Shown here in pieces: positions 28,900 to 62,018 of a DNA stretch of 64,000 bases (position 1 is its first letter; each line of letters begins with the position of its first letter). Below the pieces are notes generated by a model, which searched no databases, was not told where the DNA came from, and saw only the letters and a list, made by a program, of their open reading frames with translations. The position numbers and the translations under genes are program-made. This DNA is from Psammoneis japonica (lineage: Eukaryota): the NCBI GenBank assembly GCA_008632985.1, contig QPGO01000136.1, positions 1 to 64,000 on the forward strand. Reading direction: 5' to 3'.

Positions 28900-30397
28900 C
28901 TTTCCCGATTTGGCCAGGGATGTTTATGTCCCTGGATTTGGCATCATCAAAAACGGCATGTTGCACTTTTGATGTGTCTCGACTACATGGCAAACATCGT
29001 GGGGCTGACACATGTTTCATTTTGGGGTCTTCTTCCACCATTGTCACAAAGAGGTTGATGCATTGTTTTGGTTTCCGGGGTGGGGGGTGGTGGGGGGCTT
29101 TGGCTGTGACACACAGCACAAACAATCGCTTGCTGCCGCACCTTGACTTGTGGCTTGATTGCTTTGAAACATGGGCAACATCTGAGTGGCAGACAGAATC
29201 ACTGTGGCAAGTTCTTTCTGTGTTTTCTCATTTTAGACCATTTGAGTGCTTACAAAAGATGTTGTTTGTGTTTTGTTGCCACTTGAAAGTTGGGTTGGTC
29301 ATGTCGAGCAGCTGCTGACGGTCGGCTCTGCGATGTGCTGCATCTGTTTTTTCCTCACTTCATTTTCACCACAAAAGCACCCCCATTGAGGAGACTTTTG
29401 CTTGCTCTCACTCAGCAAGTTTGTTTGACCAAAAATTTCACAGTGTGTTGGTGGGCATGCAGCACTCTTGCTTTGCTTCCAGGGGCCTTGTGTGGCAGAG
29501 CCACACAAGGGTGCGCACAACACCAGCTTTTGACAGACAGACTCAAACAAAAAAGGTGCCCCAGTGAGCATGCTGTGCTTGGCTGAGCTTCAGAGTCATT
29601 TTGGTAAAAAAAAAACCTTCTTCCAGCCCAGGTGGGGCTGGGGGCTTCATGTCATGCTGGGTCCACAGAACTCTGCGCTCAAGCTTTGCAGCAAAACCAC
29701 TGGGCAGTGAACATGCAAGTGGCTGCCAAAAGAAAAAAGGTGATTTCACTTGACAAAAAACTCTCATGTGACAGCACAGCAGTGCAAGGCCCCACCTGGA
29801 GCATGGCATGTCAAAACTCACACACCCTGGAAGCTTCCCTTTTGTGTTTGTTTGTGAGCAGGTGTCTGATCTTCCTTGACCCTCTCTTCCTGCTCTACAA
29901 CTGTGCTGTCTTCACTGTCCAAGACATGTTTTTCCATGTCACACATCATTTTTAAAGCTGTTGGAGCAGGAGCAAGCTGCAAAGGAGGCAGGCCATCAAG
30001 TGCTTCATCCTTTTTGGGCATTTGCACCAACAGAGTGGTGCTTTCTGCATTTTCTGTGAGCAGCAAAGCAGCAGATGATGTGCTTGAGTGGCTTGTGGCT
30101 TTTGGAGTGTTTGCTGAAGCTGTGGTCACATTAGAGGCAATGAAAATGTTGCTGCAGCAACAGCTGCATTGTGCTGAGCCAAGAGCAGGCCAGCAGCAAC
30201 TCAAGTCTTGTGCGCTCTCCATTGCATGGTGTGAGCATTTGAGGCAAGAGGGGCATTTGAGGCTGCTGACAGCAAAACAGCCAGACCTGTCACCCAAAAC
30301 CCGTTGGCCAAAATTGTTGGAAAACTGGCTGGCAAGAGTTGTTGGGAAGCTGGAGAATCATCAGAAAAGAGCCAAAGCTGGCAAAAGTTGCTGGAAG
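28900..30397. other. Unclassified degenerate repeat-like DNA, depleted of TpA and CpG
   Basis: Same composition as the neighbouring transposons but no recognisable domain. Short imperfect repeats (CTGGCAAxAGTTGxTGG) occur near 30300-30397, where Copia A is cut. Confidence 0.4.
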
Positions 30398-33300
30398 AGG
30401 CATTGTTGTCTTTGCCAATGAGGGTGGCCTGTGTCTGGGGCACAAACAGCTCATTGAGAACAAATTGCAGGCACAGTGCCATCTTGCCTGCATTGGACAT
30501 GGCAATGTGCTCAGCCTCAGACAATGAGGTGGAGACCAGCATTGGTTGCACTCAGGTCTTCCATGCAAGAACAGCTGCACCAGCAAGAAGGAAAGCAGCA
30601 CCCACAACAGAGCAATGGTGGCACATGTTGACAGCCCAGTCAGAGTCCTTGCAGCCTGGAAGCTTGGTGGGAAAGGCTGCCTGTGGGGGGTTGTTGCATG
30701 CAATCATGAGGGAGGGTCAGAGGCAGGGGCAGAGGCACAAATGGCAGATGGTTGTTGGGAGTTGAGCACCAGCAGGTTAAAGCAAAATTTTCATGATTGT
30801 GCAGGTGCCTGAGCACTCATTTTACACCATTGCAGTGAGTTAAGCCAGGAGCAGAGACAAGCTGGCTGAGTTTAGCTGCAGAGAAACTGAGACCCACATG
30901 AGCAGTTGCTGTGGTGGCCCACATGAATTCACCAACAGCTTTGTGGTGGGAGAAGCCATGGAGGTGTTGCAGGGCTTTGGAGGCCTTGTTGCCTGCCAGC
31001 AGGGTTTCTTCATCTAGAGCTCTGGTGTGGGAGGCATTGCCAGGCACAGGAATGGTGGATGGATGAGGAGCTGAGTCATCAGCATGGGACTGGAGAAAGG
31101 GACAGTTGGCCAGTGTGCCCTTGACATGGGAGGTGCTGTGCAGGCAAATGCAATCACAAGTCTGTTCAACATTGCACCCATGAAACAGTTTCAACAGACT
31201 GCAGTGCTTGGCATTGTCGCCAGCGAGGTGTTGGTCCACAATGCTGCACATGCAATTGATGCATTTTGTCTGAATCAGCAGTGATGGCAAAGTCATCCAC
31301 CTGACAGAGGAAAAGGACCTCTCTTCACTGCATTGATGGCTCCACTGCAAATGCATGGCTCAGGGGTGGCAGGAGCAAGCAGCAGATGTTTTCACAGGAT
31401 GATGACATCAACATGGATGTTCCCCAGTCAAGGAGCTTTGAGGTGACCTTGAAGAGCCTTGCACACTGGCAAAATGTGATCCTCATGGGTGGGAGGGTGA
31501 CCAAGATGTTTGGTTTGCCAGCTCTGAAACACCTCATCCACACACATGCACAACATTCACTTGGGGGGCAGGGCCTCAGCAAAGGCATTGCTTGCATCTG
31601 CACCATGCACTTGTTGTTCTTCAAAACAGCAAGCTCAAAGAAGAGTCATGTGCTGGGATGCTCAACTGACACTGCACAGGTCTGATCCAAAGTTTGAACA
31701 TGACCAGAGCTGGGGCTGCCATCGCACATGCCATGAGCCTTTTTGGTGTGGGACTTGTCATTCTTGATGAGATGTGACCATGTCCCCAGTTGAACACAGT
31801 GGCACCCAGTGGAGCTGGGGCTGGAGTGCCAAACATGCTTTGGTTGTTGCACATGCCCAGCTGAAGAAATTCACTGGCTCCCCAGTCACCCCAATCCTCC
31901 TTGGTGAGGAATTTCTGGTGGGTGAGTGTGTGCATGGTTGGAATGGTGGGTTTGTTGATGGACTCCACAGTTGACATCAGATGTGGTTGGTCTAATCCAG
32001 AAAGAGTTGTGAGAGACCAGCAGAGTCAAGGGCAGGCAATGAGCAACCACGTGCAAAATGGAGCATCACAGAGTCATCAAGGGAGGCAAAGTCTGTCACA
32101 GGGTGAGAGTTGACCAAGACAAGACAGCCACACTTGAGCTCAGAATGCCATTGTGGTGTCCACACAGTGTGAGAGCTGGGGCCACAATGGCAGAGGTGAA
32201 GATGACTGCAAGCTGAATCACAGTCAAGTTTGAATCCAAACTGCAGATTTGGGTGCCCTTGGCAACAGGACATCAAAGGATCATTCGAAAGGATTGAAAG
32301 ACATGGCCACCACAGCAACTGAGTCAGAGCAGATGGGGTCTTCAGGACAAGCAAATGAAGCTGTGGCTGCACCACAATTGAGTCATGCACTGTGAAATCA
32401 CTCTCCTCAAGGGACAGGGCCTGGACAAGACAGAGAGGGGGGCTTGAGGACAAGGGTTCACCAAGTTGCAATGGGGGGCAGCCCACCCATTGTTGTGCCA
32501 ATTTTGGAGAGGGAGAGGGTGCAATCTGCTGTGTGCCCAAGTCAAACAGTGGTCGGGGTCCAGGAGGATGCACCAGTTGGGTGAAGTGAGCCTCATCAAA
32601 GATGGCATGAGCAGTGGTCTTCTTGCATCCTGAAGCAGCACCAGCATGTTGGGTGTTGCAACCCATGGCAGTGTGACCCACAAACATGCCATTGAAGATG
32701 TGGTGGTCCAGCTCAGCAGGTGGAGATCCAGGACAATGGGGGTGAATGTGTGAGAGCCAAAGGCACAAAGACATGCAAGGTCAGGGAGCTCACCCTTCCA
32801 TGCCATGCCAGATGGGGTGTTTTGTCAATCGTGGAGTGCCGACAGTGGTTCTTCAGGTGCACAGCATGTTGGAGTGCACTGGACCAACACATCACAGGAA
32901 GTCCAGAGGACTGTGGCAATGCTTGCGGCACAATGCCAAATGTTTCATTTGGGATTTCCACTTGACCATTCTGACATGGAGCATTGGAGCCAGTTCCACC
33001 ACATGTCAGTGGGAGAGACAAGCCTTTCAAAAATGTCTTCAGAGCATGCAAGTTTGCCACCTTGGTCAGTGCAGATGGCACGGTTGCCTGCTGTGCATTT
33101 GTGATGATGAAGGAAAGCATTGACAAACTCAATGGGGGGATTCTTGCTTGGTGTCAAAAACACCCATGCACAGCAAGTGCAGGCATCCATGGCAAGCAGG
33201 CAGGAGTTGCAGCCATCTCTGGGTGTTGGATGGCATGCTCAACTTGATTTTTCTTCTTGTGTTGCATCTTCATCTTTGGCTGCATGTCAGGACTGGAGGC

Positions 33301-34620
33301 ATGCATGAAGCCAAAGTCCATGTGAAAGCATGTTGCTGGGAGGAGGTGGGAGTCATCCTGAGGTGGACCCATGGGGAAGCATCAATGATGTGCATCATTG
33401 CAGACCTCACAGGACCAACAAGGGTGTGAATGAGCCTCAGCAGTTGGCAGCACTCCTTTGGCATGACAACACATGTGAGGCAGTTGCAGCCAAGATGGTG
33501 GTGCCACAGCTCACTGGTGGCTGCCCTTTTTAGAAAGTGCAGCTCTGGAGTGACACCCACAACATCCATGCACTTGGGAGGGGAGCAGCCATGATGGGCA
33601 GGAAATGGCTGGGGACATTCATGCTGTGCCCAACTTCCAGAGTCTCAGGGGCATGGACAGCAAGAGTGTGCAGGGCACAGTCAAGCTCAGAGTGAGCACT
33701 CATTGGCAAGGGGCACATTTGGGTGGAGCCAAGGCATGAACCACAGTCTGCTCACTTGCACCATTGGAAAGGAGTGCTGCAGCATCTGATTGTGATTTGC
33801 AATGGCCAGAATGCCATGACCAGTGTCCAGGCAATGACATGAGTGACATTGGCTGCACTGTTCTGTGGATGAGCAACAAAAATGATCTGGTGAAATGAGT
33901 GTCTCACCGAGACTGGGACAAAAGAACATTGGCGCAGATGATGTGTGCTGTTGGGCAGGGTGCACATTTCTGGGCAACCAAGGAGGGAATCAGAGAGTCA
34001 GCAGAAGGCAGAGATGAACATGCATCCCAGTCATCCACCCTGCTGTCATCAGCAAGTCACTCGCTGCTGTGCCAAATGAGATTTGTGGCCAGCTCAGGCA
34101 AAATCTGGGGTCACATCAGAAGCAAAGAGTTGTTGCTGCATGGCAGCATCCTCCATCACAAAATCAATGAGATCATCTGAGACATTGGCTGAAAAGGAGC
34201 AAGCAGCAGGGTGATGACAGCCTTTGTGTTGTTGGTTGTGGGATTTCCATTTTGAGATGTTGGGTGACACTTTCTCAGCATTGTTCTTGATGAAGTCTGT
34301 TGCATCCAAGCTGGTTGAGAGCAGCTGCAATGACTGTGTCCACAGGGCCCCACACACATCACACATCCTTGTGGGTTTGAAAAACCATGGGCTGTTGGTT
34401 GGGTGCAGCAGAGTGACAATCACAAGAGAGGCAGCCCCAAAAAACACTCAGGGAGCCAGGTGTGTCAGTTGGAGCGGTGAGTTTTGGATCAATCTGCATG
34501 GCAACAGACACCAGTTGCAGATTGTGGGAGAGTGGAGCCCTCTCACCAAACTCATTGAGGCAGCATTTGAGCAGCACTGTAGGTTCACACATGCCAGTGG
34601 GTGTTGCAACAAGAAATTTG
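30398..34620 (-). mobile_element. Degenerate Ty1/Copia retrotransposon A, truncated within RNase H
   Basis: Copia domain order on the minus strand: pre-integrase ELWHHHLG, integrase FHMDFGF...ICTDQGGKLA...QNGQVE..N, RT (KKAHGMCDGSP) and RNase H (STSLSEAEHIAMSNAGKMAL...KDNNAS). Confidence 0.85.
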
Positions 34621-34624
34621 AGGG

Positions 34625-36289
34625 ACTTGTCCATGTGGGCACCACTGCAGGCCGTGAGAAATTGGCCCCTCATGCCACACATGAAGAGGCCCACTTCACT
34701 CAAGCAGTGCGTCCCCCCGGTCCTCAACTGTTGTTTGACCTGGGCACACAACAGGTGACCCCTCCTCCACCTGTTGCACCAGACCTTCAGCCAGCTCCAT
34801 GCTCACCACCAGCCTCTGACAAGCCACTCTCAGACCCCCCCGGATCAGCTTGCTGCAAGGCCTCCCACTTGGTGAAACTGCGATTTCTCCATCAGAACCA
34901 TTTGCTGCTGCTGCGGCTGCTTTCCAGGCCCCTTTGTCACCAGTGTCCTTGGATGCCATGGCTGCAACAGCAATGTCCTTTGACCTGCATGATGATTCAT
35001 TTGATGTTGTGCTCCCTGACAAAGGCTCCCGCAAACCACACTTTGGTCTCAAGTTCGATCTGGACGCCAATCATCACCGCCACCGCCTCCGCCTCCATCA
35101 CTGTCGACCTGGCTCCAGAGCTGCCCCCACGGTGGCACTTCAAGCTGCCAACATGAGCATGTTTGACATCCACAAACTCCCACCCAGTTCATGATTTTGC
35201 CTCTTTGGACGCCGCCATTGACCTCATTGGCTTGGATGCTACGGCCATCATGCTTCGATTTGCACATGACTGCACGTCTCCCTCCCTTGACTCCACTGGA
35301 CTCCCTCAACTGTTCCTGGATCAAATCCAGGACATGCGCCACCAGCTTGCATCATTGAAGGAACCCACCATTCCAACAATGCACAAGCTTGCACATTGGA
35401 AGCTCCTGACACAGGAGGACTGGCCCGACTGGGAGAACAGCGAGTGCAAACAGCTGGACATGTGCAACAACCAAGGAATGTTTGGCAAACTGACACCTGC
35501 CCCGGCTGGTGCAGCAGTGCTTAATTGGGTTTGGTCACACCTCACAAAGAACAACTTGGATCACACCAAGAAGGCGCATGGTGTGTGTGATGGCAGCCCT
35601 TGGTCGGGCCATGTCCAAACACTTGACGAGACCTGTGCTGCCTCTGTGGAACAACTGAGCATTTGTCCATTTTTTGCTTTGGCCGCCCTGAAGAACAAAC
35701 GGGCACATGGCACCGATGTGAGCAATGCATTTGCTGAGGCACCACCACCAAAAACAGCACTTCTACATGCGAGTCAACAAAGTTTTTCAAAATTGGTGGA
35801 CGAATCATCTTGGCCACCCTCCCATCCCTGAAGGCCATGTGCTCCCTGTGCTCAAGGCTCTCCAAGGACACCCAGAGTCACCACGTCTGTGGAACAGGCA
35901 CATTGATCAAATCATCTGCACCAAACTTGGTCTTGCTCCTGCACTGCCCATGAACCATGCATCTGCAGCAGCACAATTGATGGAGAACACGTGCTGTTCC
36001 TGCGACAACAGATGACTTCGTGATTGCCACTGACAGCGATGAAACCTGCAACATCATTTGCAACATTGTGGACAATGACTTGGCTGGTGGTGAGATCAAA
36101 CATCAAGGCTTGCTCACACTGTTCCTTGGCTACAATGTCGAACAGACCCAAGACTGCATCCGCCTCCACAGCACTTCTTCGTGCATCAAATGGATTTTGA
36201 AGAACTGCCCATTCCTTGATGCACCGGATGAACACCACCACACTGTGGCTCTCCCCATGCCAGGCAATGCCTCCCACACAAAAACTCTT
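34625..36289 (+). mobile_element. Degenerate Copia B (same family as A, opposite orientation), segment before the nested insertion
   Basis: EEAHFTQAVRPPGPQLLFDLGTQQ, WENSECKQLD, KKAHGVCDGSP, DVSNAFAEAPPP and KALQGHPESPRLW. The reading frame PGNASHTKTL stops at the insertion of element C. Confidence 0.85.
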
Positions 36290-36534
36290 TGACAGGATTT
36301 GAACAAGATTTTAGTTTGTCACACACAATCATGTGTGCTCTCAGTTCCGCGCACGTCACGCGATGTAGTTTGCTTTCGAGCCACACGGCTCACAGGAACA
36401 ATGACAGCAGTGCCGATGTCATGACACCAGTCTTTCGGCTCCTGTGACGGTCTCTGCACGGAGACTCATCTGCTGTTTAGACAGCAGAAAGGAGTCACTG
36501 TTTTCTTCCACCCAGTCATCTTCATTTTCTGTCA
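36290..36534 (+). repeat. 5' LTR of element C
   Basis: TGACAGGATTTGAACAAG...CATTTTCTGTCA, homologous to 42884-43129. Confidence 0.95.
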
Positions 36535-37325
36535 GATTGACAGTCTTGCTCTTTGTTGTCCATTGAGCATTCACCATCGTCATCGAGAAAAAATTTTCGA
36601 CGACGCGCACCGTTGGCGGTGGAAGCACATGTCCACCTTCTTCACTGCTGGACACTGGATTAAATCCACACATTTGGATTTATCCGGCACCTCCCATCAT
36701 TGGACACATTTGTTCAACAGATGTTTGTTTGGCCAGGAATTCCCGAATTCTCAGACATCCGAGATTCTGGATTCCTTGCAGCGGATCCTGCTAATGCACC
36801 CGCACGTGTCCACGTGCACATGGCACAAATCCCTGACTCTGGCTCTGCTCCACGCACACCAAGTCTACCGCCTCGTATCTGCATCGGATTGCTGGTCTTC
36901 TGCAGTCCCACAAGGTCCATGAGGACAACTGTGAGAGGAAGCAGTTTGCGATTGCAGCCTGCATTGGGGCGAGGGTGCATTTCCCATGTTTGTTCGTCCC
37001 TCCACAGCGCCAAATTGGCCGGCCTGATCGGGTCATCCAACCGACATAAAATGAGAACGGTTTGGAGTTCTTGTCCACCTCTAGTTGGCTTGTCAGCAGG
37101 GGTTTTTAACCCGTTGCTCTGCTCTCAGGCTGCCCAAAGCATCGCCAGCTGCAGGTTCGGACGTGCCGGCACAACTCTGCGGACCGAATGGGAAGCTTGG
37201 CACTTAACTGCAAACGGGATGTCACAGCCCGGCGGCTTCTGACTCTTGAGATAGTTCAAGACATCAAGTCAAGATTCAAGTCAAGTTTCAAGTTGTTTCA
37301 AGCTCACCCTCCCACTGGTTGCAAC

Positions 37326-40300
37326 ATGGTTCTCACCAGGCAACAACAAATCGATGGCCTTGAGCACATTCTAGGCACTGTTCTGAATCAAGCCACAGAC
37401 AGTCCATTGTGCTCCGCTCTCAACATTGATGGAACCGATTCACATCAGGACCTTTTTGCTTTTACTCCGACGCAACTGGATGCCCTTGTGCACAACGATG
37501 GCACCAATCAGAATCCCTTGCCAAGTGGTTACAAAGCACAGACAGCTGTGCTGATTAGCCTGCACATGGCAAAAGCGCGCGGCGGCGTGGATGTCAGCAA
37601 CAACCCTAAATTGTTCACTCACGAGGAGTTCACTGACTGTTGTCTTAGTCCTGAGCATGCAGCATCCCTCTCCATGGGCACAGCGCCATCTGCTCCCACC
37701 CCTGGCTCTTTGCCACCCAAACCACGTGACCCTGTGCGTGACTTTAAACGAGGCATCAAACGTGACCCACTCACCTTCGCGACTCTCAAGTCAGACAAAC
37801 AGTGGCACACGTGGCACACCTCCATCATCACACAGGCCCGCTCCCAGGATGTCGAACTCGTTCTTGATCCGACGCACAAGCCCTCTGCAGCTGAGGACAT
37901 GGCCCTGTTTGATGAACAACAGAAGTGCATGTTTGCCGTCTTCGAACAGATCTTGCAGAATGACAAAGGCAAGGCGCTTGTTTGTCAACATGTCGACTCC
38001 TCTGATGCTCAAGCGGTGTGTTGCGACCTTTCCAAGTGCGCCCTCACTTCCACTCGCGCATCCCTGGAGTCCTCGACCCTTCTCACGCACCTCGCCACTG
38101 CTCACCTCGGTGATGGCACCTGGAAGGGATCCACCCATGCCCCCATGCTTCACTGGCAGGACCAGCTCCGCAAGTGCGAAGCTCTCATCCTGGGTGCGGA
38201 CCATTTCTCTGCTGGCCAGAAACATGTCATGCTTGAGAACGCCACTCATCCTGTTGAAGAACTCCGTTTGGCAAAGAATCAAGCTGATCAGTTCCGCATG
38301 CAGAATGGAAAGGGTCTCTCTTGCGAAGAGTGCTGTGGACTTCTGCTTTCTGCTGCAGCACAGTGCAACAGCATGTTCACCCCCAAGACCACTCCTCATG
38401 CTCCACGCCGTGCCATCTACAAACATGACCTGGTTCCCAACGACCCTGACGATGATGCATTCTTCGACATCGACAGTGATGTTGACGTCATCCAAGCTTG
38501 TGCCGCACAGACCCGCGGCAACTCCCTCACCAGGGAACAATGGCGTCGCATTCCGCTGGACCATCAGCACATTTGGGACACCTTGCCCCAGTCCACCAAG
38601 GCCATCATTCTTGGCTCACGCAATGCCCACACCGGCAACTGCCATGACTCGACGATGGTCAACCTGCACGACCTCCGTCTTGGCAGCGACGGTGACGTCA
38701 ACTTGTCTGCCAACACCCATGACATTACATCGGCACTCGCACCATCCGACGCCACAGCCGATGCAGCTGATGCCAACCCCATTCTGGCTCATCTCATCAG
38801 GCACAAGCCCCTGCCACCCGGCAACTTGCAATGTCTCCTGGCACCTGAACGGCCTCCTTCCGCCCGTTCCGGCGAGAAACCGCCCGGATCTGCACCTTCG
38901 CCCGCTCCAACGCGAAGCCCATTGACGCTGACATTGAGATCAATGGCCACAAACACCATCGCGTCAACAACCACAATGTTGTCTGCTCTGCCTCGACCCA
39001 CAAGTCAACTCGCAAAGGTGCTCTCGTGGATCGCGGTGCAAACGGTGGCATTGCCGGTGATTGTGTTCATGTCATTGCCCACACTGGTCACCAGGTTGAC
39101 GTCCAAGGCATCGACGACCATCAACCAGTTGACATCCCCATTGTCACTGCCAGTGGTGTCATCTACATGCAATGCGGCCCTGCCATTGCCATCCTTCACT
39201 GGTGCGCCTGCACTGGAAAAGGGAAGACGATGCGCTCTTGTGGCCAGCTCGAGTGGTGCAAGCACGATGTCAACGATGGGTCCATCAAGGTCCCCAATGG
39301 TCTGCAGCGCATCACCACCATTGATGGATGCATCATTCCCATTGACGTTAAAGCCGGCCTCCCGCACATCACCATGCGCCCGCACACCAATGCCGAATGG
39401 GACACTCTGCCGCGCATGTCATTCTCACTGGTGATGACACATGGGATCCATCTGTCCTTGACCACCAGTTCACAGACAATGAGACATGGCACGATGCCAC
39501 GTCTGACCTCCAAGATGACCCGACTGCCAACCTCTTTGATGAGTTCAGCAACTGTCATCACCCCCATGTCGTCAACAATGCCATGCTTGCCGACTCCGTC
39601 CTTGATGATCACCTGCTCCCGACATCTGATTTCTTCTACGAATGCCATGAGCGCGAACTCAATCCCAAGGATCCTGATTTTGAGTCCCTCTGCACCCACT
39701 TTGGCTTTCTCCCGAAGGACACTGTTTGCCGCACTTTTCATTGCACGATGCAGCATGCCCACATGCCAGCCAGCACACACCTGAAAAAGGTGCACAAATT
39801 GCCCAACCCGGCTCTCAATGTCCACCAACGCAATGAACCCGTTGCTGCTGACACGGTCTGCTCTGATGCCCCTGCCATTGACTCTGGCTGCACCAGCGCC
39901 CAGCTCTTTGTCGGCATGCACCAAAACTGACAAAGAATTTGTCAACACCCTCAAAGACAACATTCGCACTCGCGGTGCCCCGTCCAAGCTCATCAGCGAC
40001 TGCACTCAGGTTGAGATCAGCAACAAGGTTCTTGGCATCCTTCGTGCCCTCTTCATCTCTAGTTGGCAAAGCGAGCCTCACCACCAGCATCAGAATTTTG
40101 CTGAACGCCGCTGCCAAACTGTGAAGACCATGGCCAACACTGTCATGGATCACTTCGGGTCCCCGGCTTGCACCTGGCTGCTTGCCCTGATGTGCATGTG
40201 TTTTGTGCTCAACCACACGGCGTCCACCAAGCTCCACTGGCACACCCCCACCGAAGTGCCATCCGGCTCTACTCCCAACATCAGCCCACTCCTCCACTTT

Positions 40301-42896
40301 CAATGGTGGGAACCCATGTGCTGCCACCTGGATGATTCTGACTGGCCATCCGAATCTCGTGAATTACGTGGTCGCTTCGTTGGCATCGCCGAACATGTTG
40401 GTCACCAAATGACATTCAAGATTCTTTCCGATGACACTCAGAAGATTCTCTGCCATTCCAACGTGCGCTCCGCCTGTGATCCGTCTGCTCCAAACCTGCA
40501 TCTTGATCCTCCTGATGAGAAATCTGCTGACCCTGTCATTAAATCCTGCCACGACTCCAAGGATTTGCCAGATTCACCAGATGGGGAGGTGACCAGGATG
40601 CCCAAAAATGCCGGTCTTTGACCCCGAGGACATCACAGGATGCACCTTCCTCATGAAGCCACAAGAGGATGGACAACGCCACAGAGCCCGCATCGTCAAA
40701 GCGGTTGAGGACCATGACTGGAAAATCGGAGGCAGTCCTGAACTGGTCAAGTTCATTTGCTCCGTCAACAATGACGAATGCAAGGAAGTCCCAGCTCACA
40801 ATGACATCATGCACCACATTGAGCAAGAAGACGAGGACACCACTCTCTGGAAGTTCTGACGCATCGCATCGCACGAAGGACCATTTCAACCCCATGATTC
40901 CTCATGGAAAGGCTCAAGCTACAACGTCATGCTTGAGTGGGAGAATGGGGAGATCACGTCCAAACCCCTTGCCATCATTGCCAAGGATGACCCCGTCACC
41001 TGTGCCATCTACGCGCGTGAGCACGGCCTTCTAGAAACCAAAGGATGGAGACATTTTTGCAAGACAGCACTTTGTCAGAAGAAGCCATTCTGCATGGCCA
41101 ACCAAGCCAAGTTGGCTCCTTTCGCACCGCGCCATGACACAAGTGCGGGTGTGAAGTGCCACGGGACTACAAGCATGCCATGGCCCTTGATGAGCGCAAC
41201 GGCAACCGCAAGTGGGGAGACGCAATGGACCTCGAGATGACTCAGCTTGATGAGCACGAGGTCTTCCACAACTGCGGACACCACGAGGATTCCAGTGCTC
41301 CATCAGGACACAAGAAGATCCGGGTGCACCTCGTCTACGATGTCAAACATGACGGACGGCACAAAGCAAGGCTTGTTGCCAATGGACACCTCACAGAAGT
41401 GCCCGTCGACAGTGTCTGTTCCAGAGAGGTGTCTCTCCGTGGCCTGCGAATGATGATCTTCCTGGCCGAACTCAATGAACTAGAGACCTGGGCCACTGAC
41501 ATTGGGAATGCCTGCCTTGAAGCTGCGACCAAGGAGAAACTGTACATTGTAGCAGGCCCCAAGTTCGGCAACCTGGAAGGACACATCCTTGTCATCCACA
41601 AGGCCTTGCATGGACTCCGCAGCTCCGGCCTCAGATGGCATGAATGCTTTGCCGATTGCTTGCGTGCCGAAGGCTTCTTTCCATGCAAAGCCGAGCCCGA
41701 CATCTGGCTGCGCAGGAATGGTGACCACTGCAAATGCATGGCAGTGCATGTGGATGACCTGGCCTTCGCCATGAAGGACCCCCAGGCTTTTGCAGACACC
41801 CTCATGGAGAAGCACAAGTTCAAGCTCAAGGGCACTGGACCATTGGAGTTCCATCTTGGCTGCGACTTCACCCGTGACCCAGACGGCACCCTGTGCCTTG
41901 CTCCCCACAAGTGCATCGAGCGCATGGTTGACAACTGCGTGTGCCTCTTTGGGGAGAAGCCCCGCACTGATGTGCTTTCACCCCTTGACAAGGGTGACCA
42001 TCCTGAGATCGACACCTCCGAATTGCTCAAACCAGACGGCATCCACCAGCTCCAATCCTTGATTGGATCCCTGCAATGGGCCGCATCTCCAGGTCACATT
42101 GACAATTGCTGTGGCTGTCATGTCCCTGTCTGGCTTTCGTGCAGTGCCCCGTCAAGGCCACCTGGACCATGCCAAATGCATCTGCGGATTCCTCTCCAAG
42201 ATGCGTCATGGTGCCCTCCAAGTGCGCACCGAGGAGCCCGACCATTCGGACCTCCCCAAGCCCGTGCATGACTGGGCTCAATCTGTGCATGGGGAGGCAG
42301 AAGAGCCACTCCTGCAAGATGCACCCAAGCCGCTTGGCAAGTTCGTCACCACCACACACTGCGTTGATGCGAACTTGTTCCATTGCGTGCTCACTGGATG
42401 CTCTGTCACCGGCATCCTCCATTTCCTCAATGAGTTTCCGGCTGATTGGTTCTCTAAGAAACAAGCAACAGTTGAGACTGCTGCACATGGATCTGAGTTT
42501 ATTGCCGCAAGGACGTGCATTGAGCAGATCATTGATTTGCGCATCACTTTGCGTTGCCTTGGCATTCCCATTCGTGAAACATGTTGCATGTTTGGGGACA
42601 ACAAGTCAGTTGTGGACAGTGCTGCCACCCCGCACTCCAAGTTGCACAAGCGACACACTGCCCTCTCATTCCATTGTGTGAGTGAGGCGATTGCCTCTGG
42701 TTTCCTTGAGTTTCATTTCATCGAAGGTTCCCACAACCCAGCTGACATCCTCAGCAAGCATTGGGGTTGCTCCCAAATCTGGAACCTCCTTTGTCCTCTG
42801 ATGTTTTGGAACTTCGATCCCGAGGCTTTCAACCAATCCGACTTCAAATCTGTCACTGTTGACCCCTCAAGCAAACTGGGGAGTGACAGGATTTGA
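37326..42896 (+). pseudogene. Mutated gag-pol polyprotein of element C
   Basis: gag (DFKRGIKRDP), protease (DRGANGGIAG), integrase (QSEPHHQHQNFAERR), RT (ATDIGNACLEA, KALHGLRSSG, AVHVDD) and RNase H (ETAAHGSEF, MFGDNKSVV, NPADILSKHWG). Contains frameshifts and stops. Confidence 0.92.
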
Positions 42897-43129
42897 ACAA
42901 GATTTTAGTTCATCACACATGATTGTGTGTGGTGCTCTTAGTTCCACGCGTCACGTGATGCAGTTTGCTTTTGAGCCACACAGCTCACAAGAATGACAAC
43001 AGCAGCGCCGATGTCATGACACCAGTCTTTTGGCTCCTGCAACGGTCTCTGCACGGAGACTCATCTGCTGTTTAGACAGCAGCAAGGAGTCATTGTTTGC
43101 TTCCACCCAGTCATCTTCATTTTCTGTCA
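42884..43129 (+). repeat. 3' LTR of element C
   Basis: Homologous to 36290-36534. Confidence 0.95.
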
Positions 43130-44065
43130 CTCTTGATGAGGCCCCCACACCCGCCAACAATGCCGAATCCCGCTGACTCCAAAACCAGCATGGCTTCTCC
43201 TGCTGCAAAGCCGCCAGTGAACTCACATGGGCCATGGTCACCACCCGCGTGGACCTGAGTTTTTCAATCACCAAGCTGAGTCAATTTGGCTCCAACCCTG
43301 GCTCCGCTCACTGCGAAGGTGTCAAGGAAGTGCTCCGTCATGCCCACCGACATCCAGACTTTGGCCTGACACACTGGCGCCCCTGCTCCAATGAGTCCCT
43401 GCCATGCGCACCCCCACTGCTGCCAGTCACCGCACTGCACAACTGGGTCACCCAACCACCACAGGCGGCTTCTCCCACAGAACTCACTGGATGCAAAGAC
43501 TCTGATTGGGCTGCTGACATCCGCCACCACCGCTCCATTGCTGGCACAGCCTTCCCACTTGCTGGCACCACCATTGCTTGGAAGACTCAAGTGCAACCCT
43601 CTGCACCCACATCACCCTTGGAAGCAGAATTCATTGCTGCATCGGGTGCTGGCAAGATGGCTCTGCACCTTCATTCCATCCTCGATGAACTGTCCCCGTG
43701 CCGCAAACACAGGCCACCCTCATCTGCACGAGGACAATGATGCATCCCGGATGATGGCCAATGCCAGCCAACCCACCAGATGGACCCGCCACATCGATGC
43801 TCATCATTTTGCACTGCAGGGTTGGGTCGAACAAGATCTTGTGCGAATGGAGCGGATTGACGCTGCCACGAACTGCAGCGACACACTCACCAAGAACCTT
43901 CCGCACATTCTTTTCTTTCAACATTTGGAGACACTCACTGGACGTCATCCCCCATCCTGTGTTTTAGATGGCAGCAACGATGCGCCACTGTGCTGTTCAC
44001 CAGAAGAACAATGCTCCCACAGTGGGCGGGCTCACAAATCTCCCAGTGTGTGTGGGGGGGGGGTC
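43130..44065 (+). mobile_element. Copia B continued (end of RT, RNase H, G-rich polypurine tract)
   Basis: Resumes with LDEAPTP...WAMVTTRVDLSFSITKLSQF, DSDWAAD, LEAEFIAASGAGKMAL, EDNDAS, TRHIDAHHFALQGWVE and NCSDTLTK. A G run lies at 44054-44063. Confidence 0.88.
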
Positions 44066-49288: not shown

Positions 49289-49775
49289 GGTTGAGTGATC
49301 AGAGCAAAGGATTCCAACAACTAGTAGCTCTAGTTGGGCTGCGAATATAAGTCGTCAAGCATGAATAGAGTTTCGCGTTTCAGCTTTTCTTTTTCCCGGT
49401 GGTAGGCAGGGGGGAGTGTGCATCCCGCCCCTTCCGTGGCCGTGAGGAGTGAGTCGTCGCATGTAGACTAAGGTACTGTACACGGTACGTAGGTGTTTAT
49501 CGTGAACGCACACCACCTACATACAGTATGATATGGTACTATACCGATGAGGGGGGCTACCCCTCACGTATCATTAGTGATGATGCCATTTTCAATTTAA
49601 AGCACCACGCACCACAGCAATATTAACACAATGTGAACACGGGCGAGATGGGGATGATGCTTCCTGCGAACAGACAGTAGCTTGGAGACCCAATGGGCGA
49701 CGGTGGCTCACAACCAACAGATGATATTCAACTAATAAAGCACTACCGACGAGCAACGGAGACTATCTATCAAGA

Positions 49776-51834
49776 ATGTTTCGCCGCAAGACTGCTTCAT
49801 ACATGGGAGATATTCTCACTCACACCACCCATGCTGTGCTCCAACCAAGAGCACAAGTCGTAAGGCGAATACCGACAAGCCACGGAATGCGCTTCGCTGT
49901 TACGAGTGGACAGCATGTCCCTACCAGGAGCTTCAGTACAAATAATATCAAATCATTCGGCAAACCGCCGCATCGCCAGCAGAATACCAAGGGGAAGCAT
50001 TGGAGAATGCCAATGTTCAAAAACCTCAATAGGGTTTCAGATGTGCTCGACATATATAAGTCCAACGGGTCACGAATGATTCCGAAAGACATTTCACTTT
50101 GTTGGAACCGTATTGCCACAATCGTATCGAGCAGCAGCAAAGAGCGAAACGAACTGCGAAAAAGAAGTCGCGATATCCAACGCTTGCTGGTACGAACCAT
50201 GAAGGATATTGACAGCTTCGACCCCGCACCGCTAGCGTCATCGATACACGGTCTCGCCAAAATGTCGGATGCTTGCAGGTACAAAATAGACCGGAAAGTA
50301 TGGGACGATTTGGAACACAGAACGATCCTTGTTTTGGATGACATGTCCCCAAGGGAAATTTCCAACATTACTTGGGCATTTGCAAAGGCTCGTCATACGA
50401 CCAACGCTTTGTTTGACATGGTGGCTCAAGCCTCTGTTCCAAAGATTCGCATGTTCAATCCTCAAGACCTTTCCAACATGGCTTTGGCATACGCAATAGT
50501 GGGACTCTCATCGCCAGTCCTGTTTGACGCAATAGCCGACGCATCTCTGAATCGGTTGGATACGTTCAAACCGCAAGCGCTTTCCAACATGGCATGGGCA
50601 TTTGCCACCGTCGGTCATCCAACGCCGAAACTTTTTGATGCCATTGCAGAGGCAGCAGCTTCACGGATAAACAGCTTCAAGCCGCAACAGCTGTCAAACA
50701 CGGCATGGGCGTATGCCACCATGGAACATTCAGCGCCGTTGCTTTTTGATGCGATAAGTAATGCAGCAGCAACTAGAATCGAGAGTTTTGACCCTCAAGC
50801 CCTTTCAAATACGGCATGGGCTTTTGCTACCGTTTGTCACTCAGCACCAGTACTTTTCGATGCCATTGCTGATTCGGCCGTAACAAGATTGGATACGTTC
50901 GACGCACAAGCGATTGCGAACACGGCGTGGGCATACGCTACCATGAATCACTCAGCGCCTTTGCTTTTTGATGCCATAGCTGAGGAATCAGTATCAAGAT
51001 TGGACAGTTTCAACCCCCAAAACCTAGCAAACACCGCATGGGCTTTTGCTACCTTTCGATATTCGGCGCCGTCGCTTTTTGATGCTATTGCTGCCCAAGC
51101 TATATCAAGGTTGGATGACTTTAGTCCACAAAACCTAGCCAATACAGTATGGGCCTACGCTACTGCTGGGCACTCTGCACCGTCGCTTTTTCATGCTGTA
51201 GCCGAGGCGGCGGTGTCGAAATTGGACAAGTTCACCACGCAAAACCTCGCAAACATGGTGTGGGCGTACGCGGTTTGTGACCAATTCAGTGAAATTCTAT
51301 TGGGAGATCAATCACCCTATATCAAGGCCTTCAACCCAAAAGCTTCCTATTTATCTGCACAGCATTTGAGCCAACTCCATCAAGTTCACCTTTGGTGTCT
51401 TGAGCATGGACGTTCGCTGCCGCTTGATTGCGGCTTACAACAGAAGTGTCGAGACGCTTTTGTTGAACAACAAGGCAATCCATCCAAGCTGCAAAAGGAT
51501 GTTATCAAGACTCTTTCGGACCTTGGACTCGACCCAAAGGAAGAATTCCGAATGGGTATAGGCTACAGCTTGGATGCAGTAGTTAGGTATCGCAATCGAG
51601 ACGTCGCCGTTGAAGTGGACGGACCAAGCCACTTTCTTTCTGATCGATCCCCGACAGGGTCTACGATTCTAAAACGATCGCCAGCTTGCGAGATTGGAAA
51701 ATTACAGTGTGGTGTCGGTGCCTTATTGGAAATGGAATGCTGTTGCAAAAAGGGGCACGAATTCAGAATCAGTTCGAGAATTGCGTAAAAAGTACTTGTT
51801 GGAGATCCTAGATCAAGCGACTGTGAAAACTTAG
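49776..51834 (+). CDS. HPR/OPR-repeat RAP-domain protein, copy 2 (9 repeats; frameshifting in the last ~150 nt)
   Basis: ORF 49776-51788 has a transit-like N-terminus, 37-aa repeats and the RAP motif VAVEVDGPSHF. The paralog-like C-terminus LRKKYLLEILDQATVKT* ends at 51834 in another frame. Confidence 0.9.
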
Positions 51835-51911
51835 GTTGGAAAAAAAAGAAAAACGAAGGGTTGTCTATCAGCTTCTCTCTACCGCACAATGATGCAAAAG
51901 AAACGTTTGTA

Positions 51912-51990: not shown

Positions 51991-52088
51991 CACTTTCTCT
52001 CTGAATCCTGCACTTTTGACTGTCGTTCACAAAACAAAGGATCCCACAAGTCCTCAGCAACGGCGCGGCCTCTAGCTAGATGACGAGG

Positions 52089-53260
52089 TGTAGGCGAGAA
52101 TTTCTCTCTCGTAGGACTTGCAATTCTTGCTCAAATCAAACTGCTTCACCGCGTTCTCTTTTCCTTTGACGCACACCTCAAAGATGTCGCCATTGCGGCC
52201 GGTGGCCAAATGCCTTTTGTCGCATAAATCCTCAAAAGGGACATGAGGGACAAAGTCCTGCTTCACCAATGCAAAGTGCATCCCAAAGATTGACTTCGGG
52301 GTCTCCATTCTCTCGAGATTTGGTGAAACTGTCTCTTGAAGGTCATTGCCGTCGAACGATGTGACTCTCTTGGATGCCACACTCGCTTGTTGGATGTCTT
52401 GAAGCATTTGCCAGGAATGCATCTGACAAAAAAGACCCCAGCAACCATTCTTTGTTGTCTTTTTGGACCCAGTGCTGTCAGCTTCATCATCATTTTCATT
52501 CTCATCGCCATCGCCACCATCAGTGTTGTCATCCCCAAGTGGGGACAGGCGCTGCTCTGCTTTGTGCTTGGGTTTTTGGTTTTGAAACACATCCATCACT
52601 GCATCTTGTCATGATGTTGCCACCAGCTGCACTCAGAATCAAGAGGTTGTGGCCAGCTTTTGCTTCCACCATCAGTGCTGGAAGAACATTGCCAACCCCT
52701 GGATCCTCTGATTCTTGCACACAAACAATGTGTCACGAAGACCCACAACTGCAACTTCGCCAGCCATGCACGCTTGGAGAGGTTCCCAAACAGTGTCTGT
52801 CAAGAGTGCTTTTTTCATTTTTTCATCACACATGCATCCATTGTGGGAAACAGATCTAGAGATTGAATCTGGAACATTTCCTGCAACATGACCACCTGTG
52901 ATTCCAAAGGGTTTGTCGAGCATCTGCTCTGGCAGGTGGTGTCGACCGCTTCTCTGCTCCTTCATCTCGCTGCAAGCAGACACCTTTCCAATGAAAAATC
53001 ACAGTGGTGAGACAGATCTGCTGACACTTCTTCTTGTGTCATGCACCATGACAAGGGAACATTGGATCTCATCTCATCAACAAACTGTTTTCTTTTCACA
53101 TGCCAGCAAGCATTTCTGGCTTTGTTTTCCTCAGCAGCAGTCCACTGCAGCTCAGCACTTGAAGGATCACAAAACTCTTTCGAAAAGACATCACATTCCT
53201 TCATGCCATCAATCTTCTGTTTCAAAGCTTGTGCAGCCATTGCTGCGTCCATCCGTGCTG
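52089..53260 (-). pseudogene. Second copy of the kinase-like pseudogene, TpA-depleted
   Basis: FEDLCDKRHLATGRNGDIFEVCVKGKENAVKQFDLSKN and AQALKQKIDG match 6200-7733 in inverted orientation. Confidence 0.7.
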
Positions 53261-53415
53261 TGTGCCATGGTGAATCCAAAATCAAAATTTTGCCGCGGGG
53301 TTGGTGTTTTTGTGCAAAAGTGTGCAAAAGGTGAGTTCTGTCACATGACGGTGAGAGAGACTTTGATCACAGCCTCTTTGGCAATGAGAGTTGCTCAAGA
53401 ACAGAGCTGTCACCA

Positions 53416-56218
53416 ATGATGCTGTCCTCGAGAGCTTCCATGTACACTGGCTGTGGGTTTCGACAAAGGGCCGCAACAAAAGTGGGAGTCGTTCTCGTCC
53501 ATCCCATCCAACTGGTGTCACTGCCAAATTCCAGTGGCATTGCAACTCGACAACTGCCATTGAGCCACAAGATGTGGCGCATTGTTTTGACTGGACGACA
53601 TTGCCGGACTGGGAGCTCTGCTGATGATTCGTTCAACTTCCCACAGAAACAAAAGAAGAAAAAGCGAGTTCAATGGAGGCCACCAAATTCAAACAATCTC
53701 AACAGGGTTTCACAAGTGCTGGACGTTCATGAGGCTCACAGGGCAAAAATGAGCCCAAGAGATGTTTCAATGTGCTGGAACTGCATTTGCAAAATTACAT
53801 TGCACAACAGGCAAGAGCAAAAAAGCATTTGAGAGAACGAGCAGCAGCTGCGGTGCCTGATCGAACATTCTGCTCAGACCATCAGAGGCTTTTGCAACAA
53901 GTTGCTTGCAATGGCTGTTCACAGCATCTCCAAAATGTCAAAAATGTGCAGGTGCACAATGGACCGAGATGCATGGAACGCTTTGGAGGAGAGAACACTT
54001 TCTGTTTTGTGTGACATGTCTCCAACAGACATTTCCAAAATTGCGCGGGCATTTGCCACGGTTTGGCATGCGTCAAAGACATTGCTTGACAAGGTTGCTC
54101 ATGTCTCTGCTGCAAAGACGAGCAACTTCAGCCCTCAAAGCCTGGCGAACACGACGTGGGCCTGTGCCACAGTTGGACACTCAGCACCGTTGCTCTTTGA
54201 TGCTGTTTCCAAAGAAGCAATGCCAAGATTGGGCACTTTCAACCCTCAAGCAATGGCGAACACAGCATGGGCCCATGCCACAGTTGGACACTCAGCTCCA
54301 TTGCTTTTTGATGCCATTGCTGAAGAAGCAAAATCAAGCTTGAGCAGCTTCAACCCTCAAGTGACAGCAAACACGGCATGGGCCTTTGCCACAGTTGGAC
54401 ACTCAGTGCCGTCGCTCTTTGATGCTGTTGCTGAAGAAGCAATGCCAAGATTGGACAATTTCAACCCTCAAGACACAGCAAACACGGCATGGGCCTGTGC
54501 TGCCGTTGGGCACTTGGCACCGTTGCTTTTCGATGCTGTTGCTGAAGAAGCAAAATCAAGCTCAAGGTGGCACGAGACGAAAATTGTGAAAATCGTTTTC
54601 GCGCGCATTTTCATTGAAAATCACAGGAATCAGGAATCTGTCATCAGACAAAAGCATTGTGTCTTGTCAGCGAATCACATGGGTCAGCATGCGCGCGATT
54701 GCAAGTGTGTCGCTCAACGGAAATTCCGTTTTGGCGAATCGCTCATTTGTTGCCTCGTTCTCTGTGTCGTCTTTGAAAGGCCATGAAAGGCACTTCCAAG
54801 ACGAAAACACTTGTGAATTCAAGCATGCAGACACTTCTCTGCTGTCTCAGCTTCCTGCCGAGTGAAAGAAACTGCACCTTTTGACACTTTTTCCTGTCCA
54901 AGCATCTAATTCAAAAACTCAGGGCGAAAAACCAGGACCTTTCTTTTGCTGACAGGAACATCTTGTTGACACAATCTCGAAACTTGCAGTTTCTTTCCAC
55001 AGGCAAGTCAAGGAGACACCAACTGAGAATGCAGGACACTTGGTTGAAGGAAACGCAGCATTTGACAGCGTCCTGGGACAAGCCGAAGTGCGGCCATCGC
55101 TTTGTGTAGAAATGTGTAGAAATCACACCAGAAAAAATTCCAAACAATTTTCGTCTCGTGCCACCTTAAACCATTTCAGCCCTCAAGTGATTGCAAACAC
55201 GGCATGGGCCCATGCCACCATTGGGCACTTGGCCCCATCACTTTTCAATGCTGTTTCCACAGAAGCAATGCCAAGGTTGGACAATTTCAATCCTCAAGAC
55301 ATGTCAAACACGGCATGGGCACATGCCACTGTTGGTCACTCGGCGCCGTCGCTCTTTGATGCCATTGCTGAAGAAGCAATGCCAAGATTGGACAATTTCA
55401 ACCCCCAAGACATGTCAAACACGGCATGGGCCAATGCCACTGTTGGACACTCAGCGCCATTGCTTTTTGATGCCATTGCGGAAGAAGCAATGCCAAGATT
55501 GGACAATTTCAACCTGCAAGACACAGCAAACACGGCATGGGCCCACGCCACAGTCGGACACTCGGCCCCGTCACTTTTTCATGCCGCAGCTGAAGCAGCG
55601 GTGTCAAAATTGGGCAGTTTCACCCCGCAAGGCCTTGCAAACATGGTGTGGGCGCACGCGGTTTGTGACCAATGCTGTGACATTTCAATGGGAGATTCAT
55701 CGCCGTTTGCAAAGGCCTTCAGCTCAAATGCTGCCTTTTTGTCTGCAGAGAATTTAGGGCAACTCCATCAAGTGCGCCTTTGGTGTCTTGAGCATGGAAG
55801 TTCGCTGCACCTTGATTACAACTTACAACAGAGGTGCCGAGCGGCTTTTGTTGAAAAACAAGGCAATCCATCCAAGTTGCAAAAGGATGTTGTCAAGACT
55901 CTTTTGGACCTTGGACTCGACCCAAAGGAAGAATTCCGGACAGATGTGGGTTACAGCTTGGATGCAGTGGTCAGGTATCGCAATCGAGACGTCGCCGTTG
56001 AAGTGGACAGGCCAAGCCACTTTCTTTCTGATCGATCACCGACTGGGTCTATGATTCTAAAACATCGCCAGCTTGCGAGATTGGAAAATTATAGGGTGGT
56101 GTCGGTGCCTTATTGGGAGTGGAATGCTGTTGCAGAAAAGGACTCGAATACAAAGTCAGTTCGAGAATGGCGCAAAAAGTACCTGTTGGAGATCCTCGAT
56201 CAAGCGATTGAAAGTTAG
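53416..56218 (+). pseudogene. HPR/OPR-RAP copy 3 (10 repeats): hypermutated, with a nonsense codon and a MITE insertion
   Basis: The N-terminus matches copy 1 (MMLSSRAS...). CGA->TGA stop at 53830-53832, Y->H/C and I->M/T changes throughout, an insertion at 54566-55165, and the RAP motif changed to EVDRPSHF. Confidence 0.9.
54566..55165. mobile_element. 600-bp non-autonomous DNA transposon (MITE) with perfect 22-bp TIRs and a TTAA target; Kolobok-like GG...CC ends
   Basis: GGTGGCACGAGACGAAAATTGT (54566-54587) and ACAATTTTCGTCTCGTGCCACC (55144-55165). Flanks are TCAA (54562-54565) and TTAA (55166-55169). A corresponding repeat in copy 1 reads TCAAGCTTAAAC without an insertion. Confidence 0.92.
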
Positions 56219-61760: not shown

Positions 61761-62018
61761 CCAAGCACAGGGGAACCGACCCACGGCGGACAGATGCCGG
61801 TTCATCCGACGCCCGACACGCGCATGCAACGAGCGCAATACGAACGACAACGCCGCCACATCATCACGACGACATTGAAGCTAGCCGACTGCAGATGTTG
61901 TAGCCCTACCGGTATGTTCGATGCGGCTGCTTCGAAATGATGGACAACGTGTGGTAGTCTCACCTTCCTATTTGCCAGCTAAACAACAACACTCTCGACG
62001 GAGACTGCATCAACAGTC

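Follow-up and report, generated by a model that had tools for sequence, protein, structure and literature searches.

The window analysed here is a stretch of 64,000 nucleotides (positions 1 to 64,000 of the forward strand of contig QPGO01000136.1, GenBank assembly GCA_008632985.1) from the diatom Psammoneis japonica. At 36290-43129 it carries an element that, judged from its sequence, is one degenerate, dead copy of a Ty1/copia long terminal repeat (LTR) retrotransposon. Direct LTRs, TG..CA ends, a short target-site duplication and a reverse transcriptase (RT) of the RVT_2 family place it among the copia elements, and it lies in a chromosomal domain largely stripped of the dinucleotide 5'-TA-3'. 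We consider it likely that this element inserted once and was then mutated in place, within that bounded domain, by two dinucleotide-specific processes, one directed at TA and the other at CG. The features of the element and of the domain that holds it are as follows.

36285..36289, no strand: left target-site duplication CTCTT, read from the sequence (same letters as 43130..43134)
36290..36534, + strand: 5' LTR, 245 bp, with TG..CA termini (alignment and BLAST against the 3' LTR)
36535..42883, + strand: internal region, a degenerate gag-pol (collinear tblastn matches in alternating frames)
37326..38861, + strand: N-terminal (gag/protease-side) part of the polyprotein (tblastn, P0002 residues 1-530, 34% identity)
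38927..40576, + strand: polyprotein, central part, where copia elements have their integrase side (tblastn, P0002 residues 541-1101, 46% identity)
41156..42271, + strand: reverse transcriptase RVT_2, copia type (Pfam PF07727, E = 8.4e-25)
42099..42830, + strand: polyprotein, C-terminal part, read in a shifted frame (tblastn, P0002 residues 1607-1850, 70% identity)
42884..43129, + strand: 3' LTR, 246 bp (alignment and BLAST against the 5' LTR)
43130..43134, no strand: right target-site duplication CTCTT, read from the sequence
29001..44000, no strand: TA-free domain holding the element, edges to 500 bp (dinucleotide maps)

The interior of the element is collinear in tblastn with residues 1-1850 of full-length homologous polyproteins, in five pieces with at least four frame changes, and these frame changes, together with in-frame TGA stops at 40857 and 41135, mark the copy as dead. 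In the Pfam scan, the open reading frame (ORF) at 41156..42271 scored 88 bits for RVT_2 against a cut-off of 31.6, and the RT is 62-67% identical to more than 100 homologues. No Pfam family matched the gag/protease-side part (37326..38861), and none matched the ORFs of the central part (38927..40576) at E < 0.01. The copia order, with integrase upstream of RT, is suggested by collinearity with the full-length polyproteins, but the integrase Pfam family went undetected in the element's own ORFs, plausibly as a result of the mutation load. The stop at 41135-41137 is CGA in 66% of the depth of the family copies described below, and is thus a product of CpG decay of an arginine codon. The TGA at 40857-40859 aligns with lysine in only 30 of 63 homologues. 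Within the window, BLAST found no second copy of the LTR or of the element. The element resembles the CoDi-type Ty1/copia elements of diatoms in its copia polyprotein (approximately 1,850-1,990 residues in the homologues), in its diatom host and in belonging to an abundant family, a likeness of features rather than a phylogenetic placement, and differs from them in that this copy is dead.

A preliminary description of this DNA, made from its letters alone, had listed pairs of dinucleotide differences between the LTRs, and every one of them was found at its site when 36290-36534 was aligned with 42884-43129 (243 aligned columns; BLAST identity 88.3% over 248 columns). The LTRs differ at 24 columns, by 22 transitions and 2 transversions, and additionally by a 3-bp and a 2-bp indel. 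Six pairs are reciprocal, one LTR having TG where its partner has CA (36317-18, 36326-27, 36330-31, 36399-400, 36402-03 and 36445-46), two are TA/CA (36342 and 36366), and six sites have CG against TG or CA (36349, 36361, 36377, 36387, 36411 and 36436). Only four substitutions fall outside this scheme (the transitions at 36395 and 36498 and the transversions at 36488 and 36504), much as the same description had said in assigning nearly all of them to TA, CA, TG or CG; at 36395, the G is private to the 5' LTR, and 57 of 57 family contigs read A. The states common to both LTRs are six CG/CG, two TA/TA and 39 TG or CA, and the total counts are 3 TA, 11 CG, 19 TG and 30 CA in the 5' LTR and 3 TA, 7 CG, 23 TG and 32 CA in the 3' LTR. 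Of the 24 substitutions, 22 fall in pyrimidine-purine (YpR) columns, a class covering 127 of the 243 (binomial P = 4e-5). When 22 transitions were scattered at random, the mean number of reciprocal TG<->CA pairs was 0.38, and six or more arose in 0 of 200,000 trials; adjacency alone is modestly unusual (P = 0.016 for at least six adjacent pairs).

The LTR pair also bears on when these changes were made. LTR reverse transcription copies both LTRs from the same templates, such that they are identical at insertion. The identical CTCTT on both sides of the element indicates a single insertion with no later exchange between elements, and the finding that the same sites, spread across the LTR, took opposite outcomes on either strand indicates that the changes were made in the chromosome after integration. 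This post-insertion timing, which the preliminary description had proposed and which we draw from LTR anatomy, appears sound. Further, the argument that hits on opposite strands speak against RNA editing or RT error gains from the six sites at which the two LTRs carry opposite outcomes.

One local coincidence within the LTRs deserves mention in its own right. Between 36326-36337 and 42920-42931, the central hexamers are exact reverse complements of each other, and restoring TA at both variable sites yields a 12-base, AT-rich perfect palindrome. A small inversion was rejected as the cause, given that the adjacent CAaTG/TGaCA pair is not a reverse complement, and the relationship is probably fortuitous, two TA hits having fallen on either side of a central AT.

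Ancestral states in the coding region were polarised with 63 homologous polyproteins of at least 1,800 residues, among 120 listed, which were aligned to the element by tblastn. A codon was taken as conserved where at least 40 homologues aligned and at least 70% of them agreed; 860 codons passed, and 678 of these are unchanged in the element. Only three of 44 conserved tyrosines are kept, 25 having become cysteine (TGC/TGT), 12 histidine (CAC/CAT) and 4 something else. Conserved arginine (n = 66) is kept at 39 codons (34 of them as CGN) and has changed to cysteine at 9, to histidine at 11, to glutamine at 2 and otherwise at 5. All other residue types show 71-100% retention, and AA sites are spared, with conserved lysine kept at 44 of 49 codons and asparagine at 20 of 22. 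Over the element's aligned frames, tyrosine amounts to 0.4% and cysteine plus histidine to 10.4%, against homologue medians of 3.9% and 4.7%, respectively. With 35 further changed codons that need more than one change excluded, 147 changed conserved codons can be explained by one base: 44 by TA>TG/CA (on the coding strand, 29 TA>TG and 15 TA>CA), 47 by CG>TG/CA, 10 by other transitions and 46 by transversions. Changing tyrosine to cysteine or histidine takes A>G or T>C inside a TA and is beyond the reach of CpG decay. Judged from these codons, TA>TG/CA is close to saturation in the element, and CG>TG/CA only partial. Among the one-step changes, A>G or T>C occurs 44 times at TA and 8 times outside TA, a comparison that ruled out both GC-biased gene conversion and a bias towards AT>GC in general.

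Three host features of the window allowed the direction of change to be examined outside the element.

23145-25439: PIF1-HRDC helicase, a host gene (homology), used as an unmutated control
50792..51911, + strand: unmutated FAST/RAP paralogue, used as the polarisation reference (80% identical to 55180-56298; normal TA and CG density)
53833..56215, + strand: hypermutated host FAST/RAP repeat gene copy (Pfam FAST_1, RAP), in the TA-free block at approximately 52000-56000

By the same procedure (120 homologues, 289 conserved codons), the helicase keeps 7 of 7 conserved tyrosines and 17 of 17 conserved arginines, and its named relatives are all diatoms or other ochrophyte algae, the diatom matches having 51-68% identity. 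Because the helicase is intact, the effect is not genome-wide, and no general assembly fault is at work. In the FAST/RAP pair, the 47 TA sites of 50792-51911 are represented in 55180-56298 by TA at 12, TG at 10, CA at 20 and other dinucleotides at 5; TA>TG/CA thus runs 30 times forward against 3 in reverse, while the corresponding CG changes run 18 times forward against 10. One paralogue is mutated and its 80%-identical partner is not, from which we argue for targeting by chromosomal domain and not by sequence homology. As the mutated copy shows, the process can affect host genes, perhaps by spreading from the DNA at 52000-53800.

Other copies of the retrotransposon family offer a further comparison. 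At a likeness of at least 80%, 11,732 contigs of sequencing run X1 match the element, along with 26 from run X3 and 0 from run X2, and the X1 contigs vary at 1,589 transition places versus 262 transversion places. Site states were read from 40 of 1,906 variant rows, as selected by the tool. Among these 40, the window has CA or TG where other copies have CG in 15 rows and where they have TA in 7; the remaining rows comprise 3 with CG in the window versus TG/CA, 1 with TA in the window versus TG, 10 other transitions and 4 transversions. At 40797 and 41255, the window reads CAC, the homologues have tyrosine in 63 of 63 cases, and T accounts for 56% and 67% of the family depth, respectively; at 41168, TAC is retained in the window against TGC in 67% of the family depth; and at 41138-39, CA in the window stands against TG in 19 contigs. 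Family copies have thus taken different outcomes at the same ancestral TA, as the LTRs do in miniature. A uniformly CG ancestry, the outcome that the preliminary description had set against its own reading, is contradicted by the homologues, the paralogue pair and the family copies, all of which give TA as ancestral and TG/CA as derived.

To apportion the LTR pairs themselves, we used a model of two independent processes, with per-copy hit rates taken from the coding region (pTA 0.84-0.93 and pCG 0.39). For CG, the model expects 5.3 shared sites (6 seen), 6.7 single changes (6 seen) and approximately 1.1 reciprocal pairs; with 12-16 ancestral TA, it gives 4-7 reciprocal pairs, 1.6-4.3 single changes (2 seen) and 0.1-0.4 TA common to both LTRs (2 seen). 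Under this model, about five of the six reciprocal pairs should stem from TA and about one from CG, through CpG decay running in parallel. Sequence context points the same way. Across all TA-poor blocks, the survival of TA relative to normal DNA is 0.41 for TTAA, 0.30 for CTAA/TTAG, 0.28 for CTAG, 0.16 for CTAC, 0.15 for GTAA, 0.08 for ATAA/TTAT, 0.03 for GTAC and at most 0.013 for ATAC/ATAG/ATAT. With TA restored, the reciprocal LTR sites would be ATAA/TTAT five times and GTAA once, which are contexts of fast loss; the two TAs kept in both LTRs are TTAG, a slow context, and the half-changed sites are TTAG and GTAG. Sorted by the base 3' of the mutated A, the polarised counts are 35 of 78 for C, 16 of 33 for T, 12 of 36 for G and 4 of 15 for A, a weak hint of a T-A-pyrimidine preference in events too few to separate the base two positions 5' from the base 3' of the A. 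Searches with two degenerate LTR patterns in metagenome contigs, and with one in viral contigs, gave no match.

The element occupies part of a larger domain that shares its composition. TA counts per 500 bp are 0-7 in 29001..44000, versus 10-41 in genic DNA, with edges that are sharp at this 500-bp resolution, and the 64 kb hold five such TA-free blocks (1-2000, approximately 6500-7500, approximately 29-44 kb, approximately 52000-56000 and approximately 60000-61500). Observed/expected (o/e) ratios in the element are 0.12 for TA, 0.63 for CG, 1.69 for TG and 1.53 for CA; TA reaches only 0.01-0.07 in the other blocks, while genic DNA has 0.5-0.7 for TA and 0.9-1.1 for CG. The part of the domain upstream of the element (29001-35000) has 0-4 TA and 0-7 CG in each 500 bp, and its TG and CA are roughly twice as frequent as expected. 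Its long ORFs contain no Pfam domain, it does not resemble the copia element, and it probably represents an insertion of greater age that has been converted in full. Among the 87 long ORFs of the TA-free blocks that were compared with Pfam, the only ones with matches belonged to two pieces of the FAST/RAP gene copy.

The same signature distorts the apparent age of the element. Between the LTRs, the Kimura two-parameter (K2P) distance is 0.109 over all columns versus 0.0175 over non-YpR columns (2 of 116 differ), and a standard LTR age would, on this comparison, be about six times too old. The preliminary description had warned that LTR-divergence dating would overestimate ages in this genome, and this LTR pair is a case in point. 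The fraction of sites changed per copy is about 85-93% for TA and about 25-40% for CG. Roughly, TA would mutate 100-fold or more above background and CG several tens-fold, orders of magnitude that rest on two background differences.

Taken together, these comparisons establish which way the change runs, that it is specific to particular dinucleotides and restricted to blocks, and that copies and strands are hit independently of one another. In the course of events that we propose, a copia element would have inserted once, generating the CTCTT duplication and two identical LTRs, in what is now a sharply bounded chromosomal domain whose DNA is mutated in place. The dominant process would convert 5'-TA-3' to TG or CA, that is, A to G on either strand at an A that follows T, and a second would be the decay of CG to TG/CA, as expected from the cytosine methylation of diatom transposons. 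Hit independently and on either strand, an ancestral TA could then meet different fates in the two LTRs, TG in one and CA in its partner. For the chemistry of the TA step, the candidate to which we lean, tentatively and at a little short of even confidence, is a polynucleotide adenosine deaminase that would be recruited to silenced foreign DNA and deaminate its adenine to inosine. The tRNA adenosine deaminases act on the A after the invariant U33, which would give such an enzyme a built-in T-A preference. An adenosine-deaminase mechanism has been proposed for the chlorarachniophyte alga Bigelowiella natans in the accessible text of a preprint (bioRxiv 10.64898/2026.01.13.699255). A thymine modification that mispairs with G is an unlikely alternative source of the TA step, and error-prone repair synthesis in methylated chromatin is similarly improbable. 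The CG part fits the deamination of 5-methylcytosine by analogy with other diatom transposons, which are described as CpG-methylated through DNMT5, with the RID-related DNMT4 widespread in diatoms (PMC9998398, accessible text).

Other routes to this pattern have to be weighed against in-place mutation by two processes. Were CpG decay the sole cause, all of the reciprocal pairs would derive from methylated CG deaminated on opposite strands, and the TA/CA pairs would be unrelated C-to-T changes. Such decay does operate in the element: 22 of 66 conserved arginines read cysteine, histidine or glutamine, six LTR sites are CG against TG/CA, 15 of the 40 listed family rows have CA/TG in the window and CG elsewhere, and diatom transposons are reported to be CpG-methylated (PMC9998398, in part). 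It cannot, however, explain 37 of 44 tyrosines turned into cysteine or histidine, the 30 versus 3 changes in the paralogues or a TA o/e of 0.12, and at a CG rate of 0.39, with 6 CGs still shared, approximately 1.1 reciprocal pairs are expected where 6 are seen; as a full account, it is very improbable. Equally hard to credit is an origin of the LTR differences before integration or from different parents, whether by RNA editing, RT errors, template switching or recombination between elements. The abundance of the family and the divergence of its copies (11,732 contigs) make such an origin conceivable, but the identical 5-bp duplication points to one insertion without exchange, both LTRs are copied from the same templates by an established mechanism, and the differences do not cluster in one segment of the LTR but range from column 28 to column 218. 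Further, both strand orientations occur here, where RNA editing would leave A>G confined to the sense strand, and flanking non-element DNA and a host gene copy bear the same signature.

An artefact of assembly or base calling is scarcely believable. It would require that modification in silenced blocks be misread, with TA called TG or CA according to the strand that dominates the reads, and the block-wise character of the effect is what modification would produce. Nevertheless, the element has the frameshifts, indels and TGA stops typical of real decay, and thousands of distinct family contigs differ in state at the same sites. Also against it, 59% of sampled 31-mers of the window occur exactly in X1 contigs, although X1 may be the assembly's own data, and one X1 contig with a word depth of 68 matches 35900-36317 without mismatch, reaching only 28 letters into the LTR where the bridging rule asks for 31. 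More serious, though still unlikely, is the idea that the changes arose in place without a dedicated editing enzyme, as a by-product at TA of an error-prone polymerase, or of mispairing by a modified thymine, in methylated and late-repaired chromatin. TA loss and CG loss do occur in the same blocks. The polymerase-eta motif covers both TA and AA, and the sparing of AA sites (lysine 44/49 and asparagine 20/22 kept) fits an error-prone polymerase poorly. As for a modified thymine, the accessible texts of two studies report that oxidised 5-hydroxymethyluracil (5hmU) is read as C in a chemical mapping method (PMC11071213) and that 5hmU in dinoflagellates marks transposons and prefers TA and TC (PMC11572971), but the latter data come from dinoflagellates and the host here is a diatom. 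The near-saturation of TA, set against a 1.7% difference at non-YpR columns, gives an approximately hundred-fold excess, which looks more like a targeted activity.

Several observations nonetheless weigh against in-place mutation by TA- and CG-directed processes as we read it. The homologues used for polarity are only 62-67% identical to the element, and tyrosine-to-cysteine changes (25) exceed tyrosine-to-histidine changes (12). Two TAs are common to both LTRs where the model expects 0.1-0.6, for which we propose a context effect as the explanation, and the ancestral base at the six reciprocal LTR sites is drawn from rates and context. In the 40 listed family rows, CA/TG against CG (15) outnumbers CA/TG against TA (7), making CpG decay a large part of family variation. 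Finally, run X1 may be the assembly's own sample, in which case it gives no independent proof of the sequence.

The closest precedent comes from B. natans. According to the accessible text of the preprint (bioRxiv 10.64898/2026.01.13.699255), two integrated viral regions in mutation-accumulation lines of this alga have approximately 1000x the mutation rate of the remaining genome, their changes consist nearly exclusively of A>G and T>C, every one at TpA, and the genome holds 124 TpA-poor, CpA- and TpG-rich clusters. The likenesses to our case are the change of TpA to TpG or CpA on either strand, the AT-to-GC direction against the usual bias, the location in regions of foreign DNA and an excess of approximately 100- to 1000-fold. 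There are also differences: the host here is a diatom and not a chlorarachniophyte (a rhizarian), which belongs to a different phylum, and the targets here are an LTR retrotransposon, unidentified repeats and a host gene copy, as opposed to the giant-virus and virophage inserts described there. TA o/e falls to 0.01-0.12 in our blocks, while the viral region in B. natans is reported to keep many TpA. Further, CG>TG/CA is elevated here (47 of 147 changes, 6 LTR sites) and CpG is absent from the accessible preprint text, and this elevation may be a separate, superimposed process. The evidence also differs in kind, being historical sequence comparison here and real-time mutation-accumulation lines there.

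Fungal repeat-induced point mutation (RIP) resembles our case in being a dinucleotide-specific transition hypermutation in the chromosome that wrecks transposon frames and inflates the divergence between copies. As summarised in the same preprint (bioRxiv 10.64898/2026.01.13.699255), RIP acts as C>T mainly at CpA and enriches TpA. The direction here is the opposite, in that TpA is erased (o/e 0.12 in the element and 0.01-0.07 in the other blocks) and GC content rises. Also unlike RIP, which hits both duplicates, the mutation here has struck 55180-56298 and left the 80%-identical 50792-51911 normal. Editing of retroelements by ADAR or APOBEC enzymes is fixed before integration, is strand-specific and is identical in both LTRs; it resembles our case in its clustered transitions in retrotransposon copies, but here the LTRs differ (six opposite sites), both strands are hit and non-element flanks are affected. 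According to the Discussion of the B. natans preprint, ADAR favours an A that follows U (bioRxiv 10.64898/2026.01.13.699255). The methylation and deamination decay of CpG in diatom transposons (PMC9998398, accessible text) shares with our blocks the change CG>TG/CA and the restriction to transposon domains, but it explains the CG part only, and neither the tyrosine changes nor the loss of TA.

Our literature search, with limited coverage of subscription journals, found no report of a TA-hypermutation signature in diatoms, PMC4504042 included, and the terms "hypermut", "deamination", "dinucleotide" and "point mutation" are absent from the accessible text of the paper on CoDi elements (PMC2806351). 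The signature thus appears to have been reported once so far, in the unrelated alga B. natans (2026 preprint), and the present comparison would extend it to diatoms and to retrotransposons, adding a second, ecologically dominant lineage to a phenomenon known from that single preprint. Because only one insertion is involved, the case for TA-specific A:T>G:C hypermutation of chromosomal DNA is a clean one, and it points to an activity that edits A, or modifies T, at TA, which is relevant to genome defence and could be a natural adenine base editor. A more speculative thought, which we entertain as possible while doubting it somewhat, is that a genome defence of enzymatic nature, acting as RIP in reverse, is common to diatoms and chlorarachniophytes. 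Recruited to silenced foreign DNA, it would turn the A of every 5'-TA-3' into G, most simply through deamination of adenine to inosine, in the same domains as CpG methylation. If so, this defence would erase tyrosine codons and TAA/TAG stops, raise GC content and be able to spread to host genes, leaving pseudogenes. Were it shared across the stramenopile-alveolate-rhizarian (SAR) lineages, it would represent an old, overlooked arm of transposon control in eukaryotes, and no earlier example would exist of a natural DNA adenine editor whose footprint is genome-wide.

There are also practical consequences for annotation. Repeat and protein-domain detection fails in TA-free blocks, LTR ages are inflated approximately six-fold, long spurious ORFs open in each of the six frames once TAA and TAG are lost, and composition-based methods misread the GC-enriched blocks. 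Conversely, TA-free, TG/CA-rich blocks provide a simple marker with which silenced or foreign DNA could be mapped in such genomes. Across its six frames, the element contains 318 TGA codons versus 32 TAG and 29 TAA, such that TGA is nearly the sole stop left, and the element and the other TA-free blocks contain long overlapping ORFs on both strands (for example, of 774 and 456 residues) that could fool gene callers.

Some further observations concern the blocks and the host genes of the window. The block at 1-2000 is strand-asymmetric, with 59-73 TG versus 35-47 CA per 500 bp, whereas the 29-44 kb block is roughly balanced; the asymmetry may come from original composition or from the orientation of the inserted sequence. 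The FAST_1/RAP genes form a local cluster of a repeat protein family of the organellar-RNA-binding type, in which the paralogues at 49725-51788 and 61983-63998 are normal while 53833-56215 is mutated. At least five of these genes, on both strands, contain arrays of a 111-bp (37-residue) repeat (4037-5220, 50440-51294, 54113-55682, 57470-58879 and 62713-63678). By themselves, these repeat genes had suggested a myzozoan or dinoflagellate host, a reading dropped in view of the diatom and other ochrophyte relatives of the helicase. The PIF1 helicase gene carries, at 23500-24117, a 300-bp direct repeat whose copies are 94% identical and 318 bp apart and correspond to its two HRDC domains.

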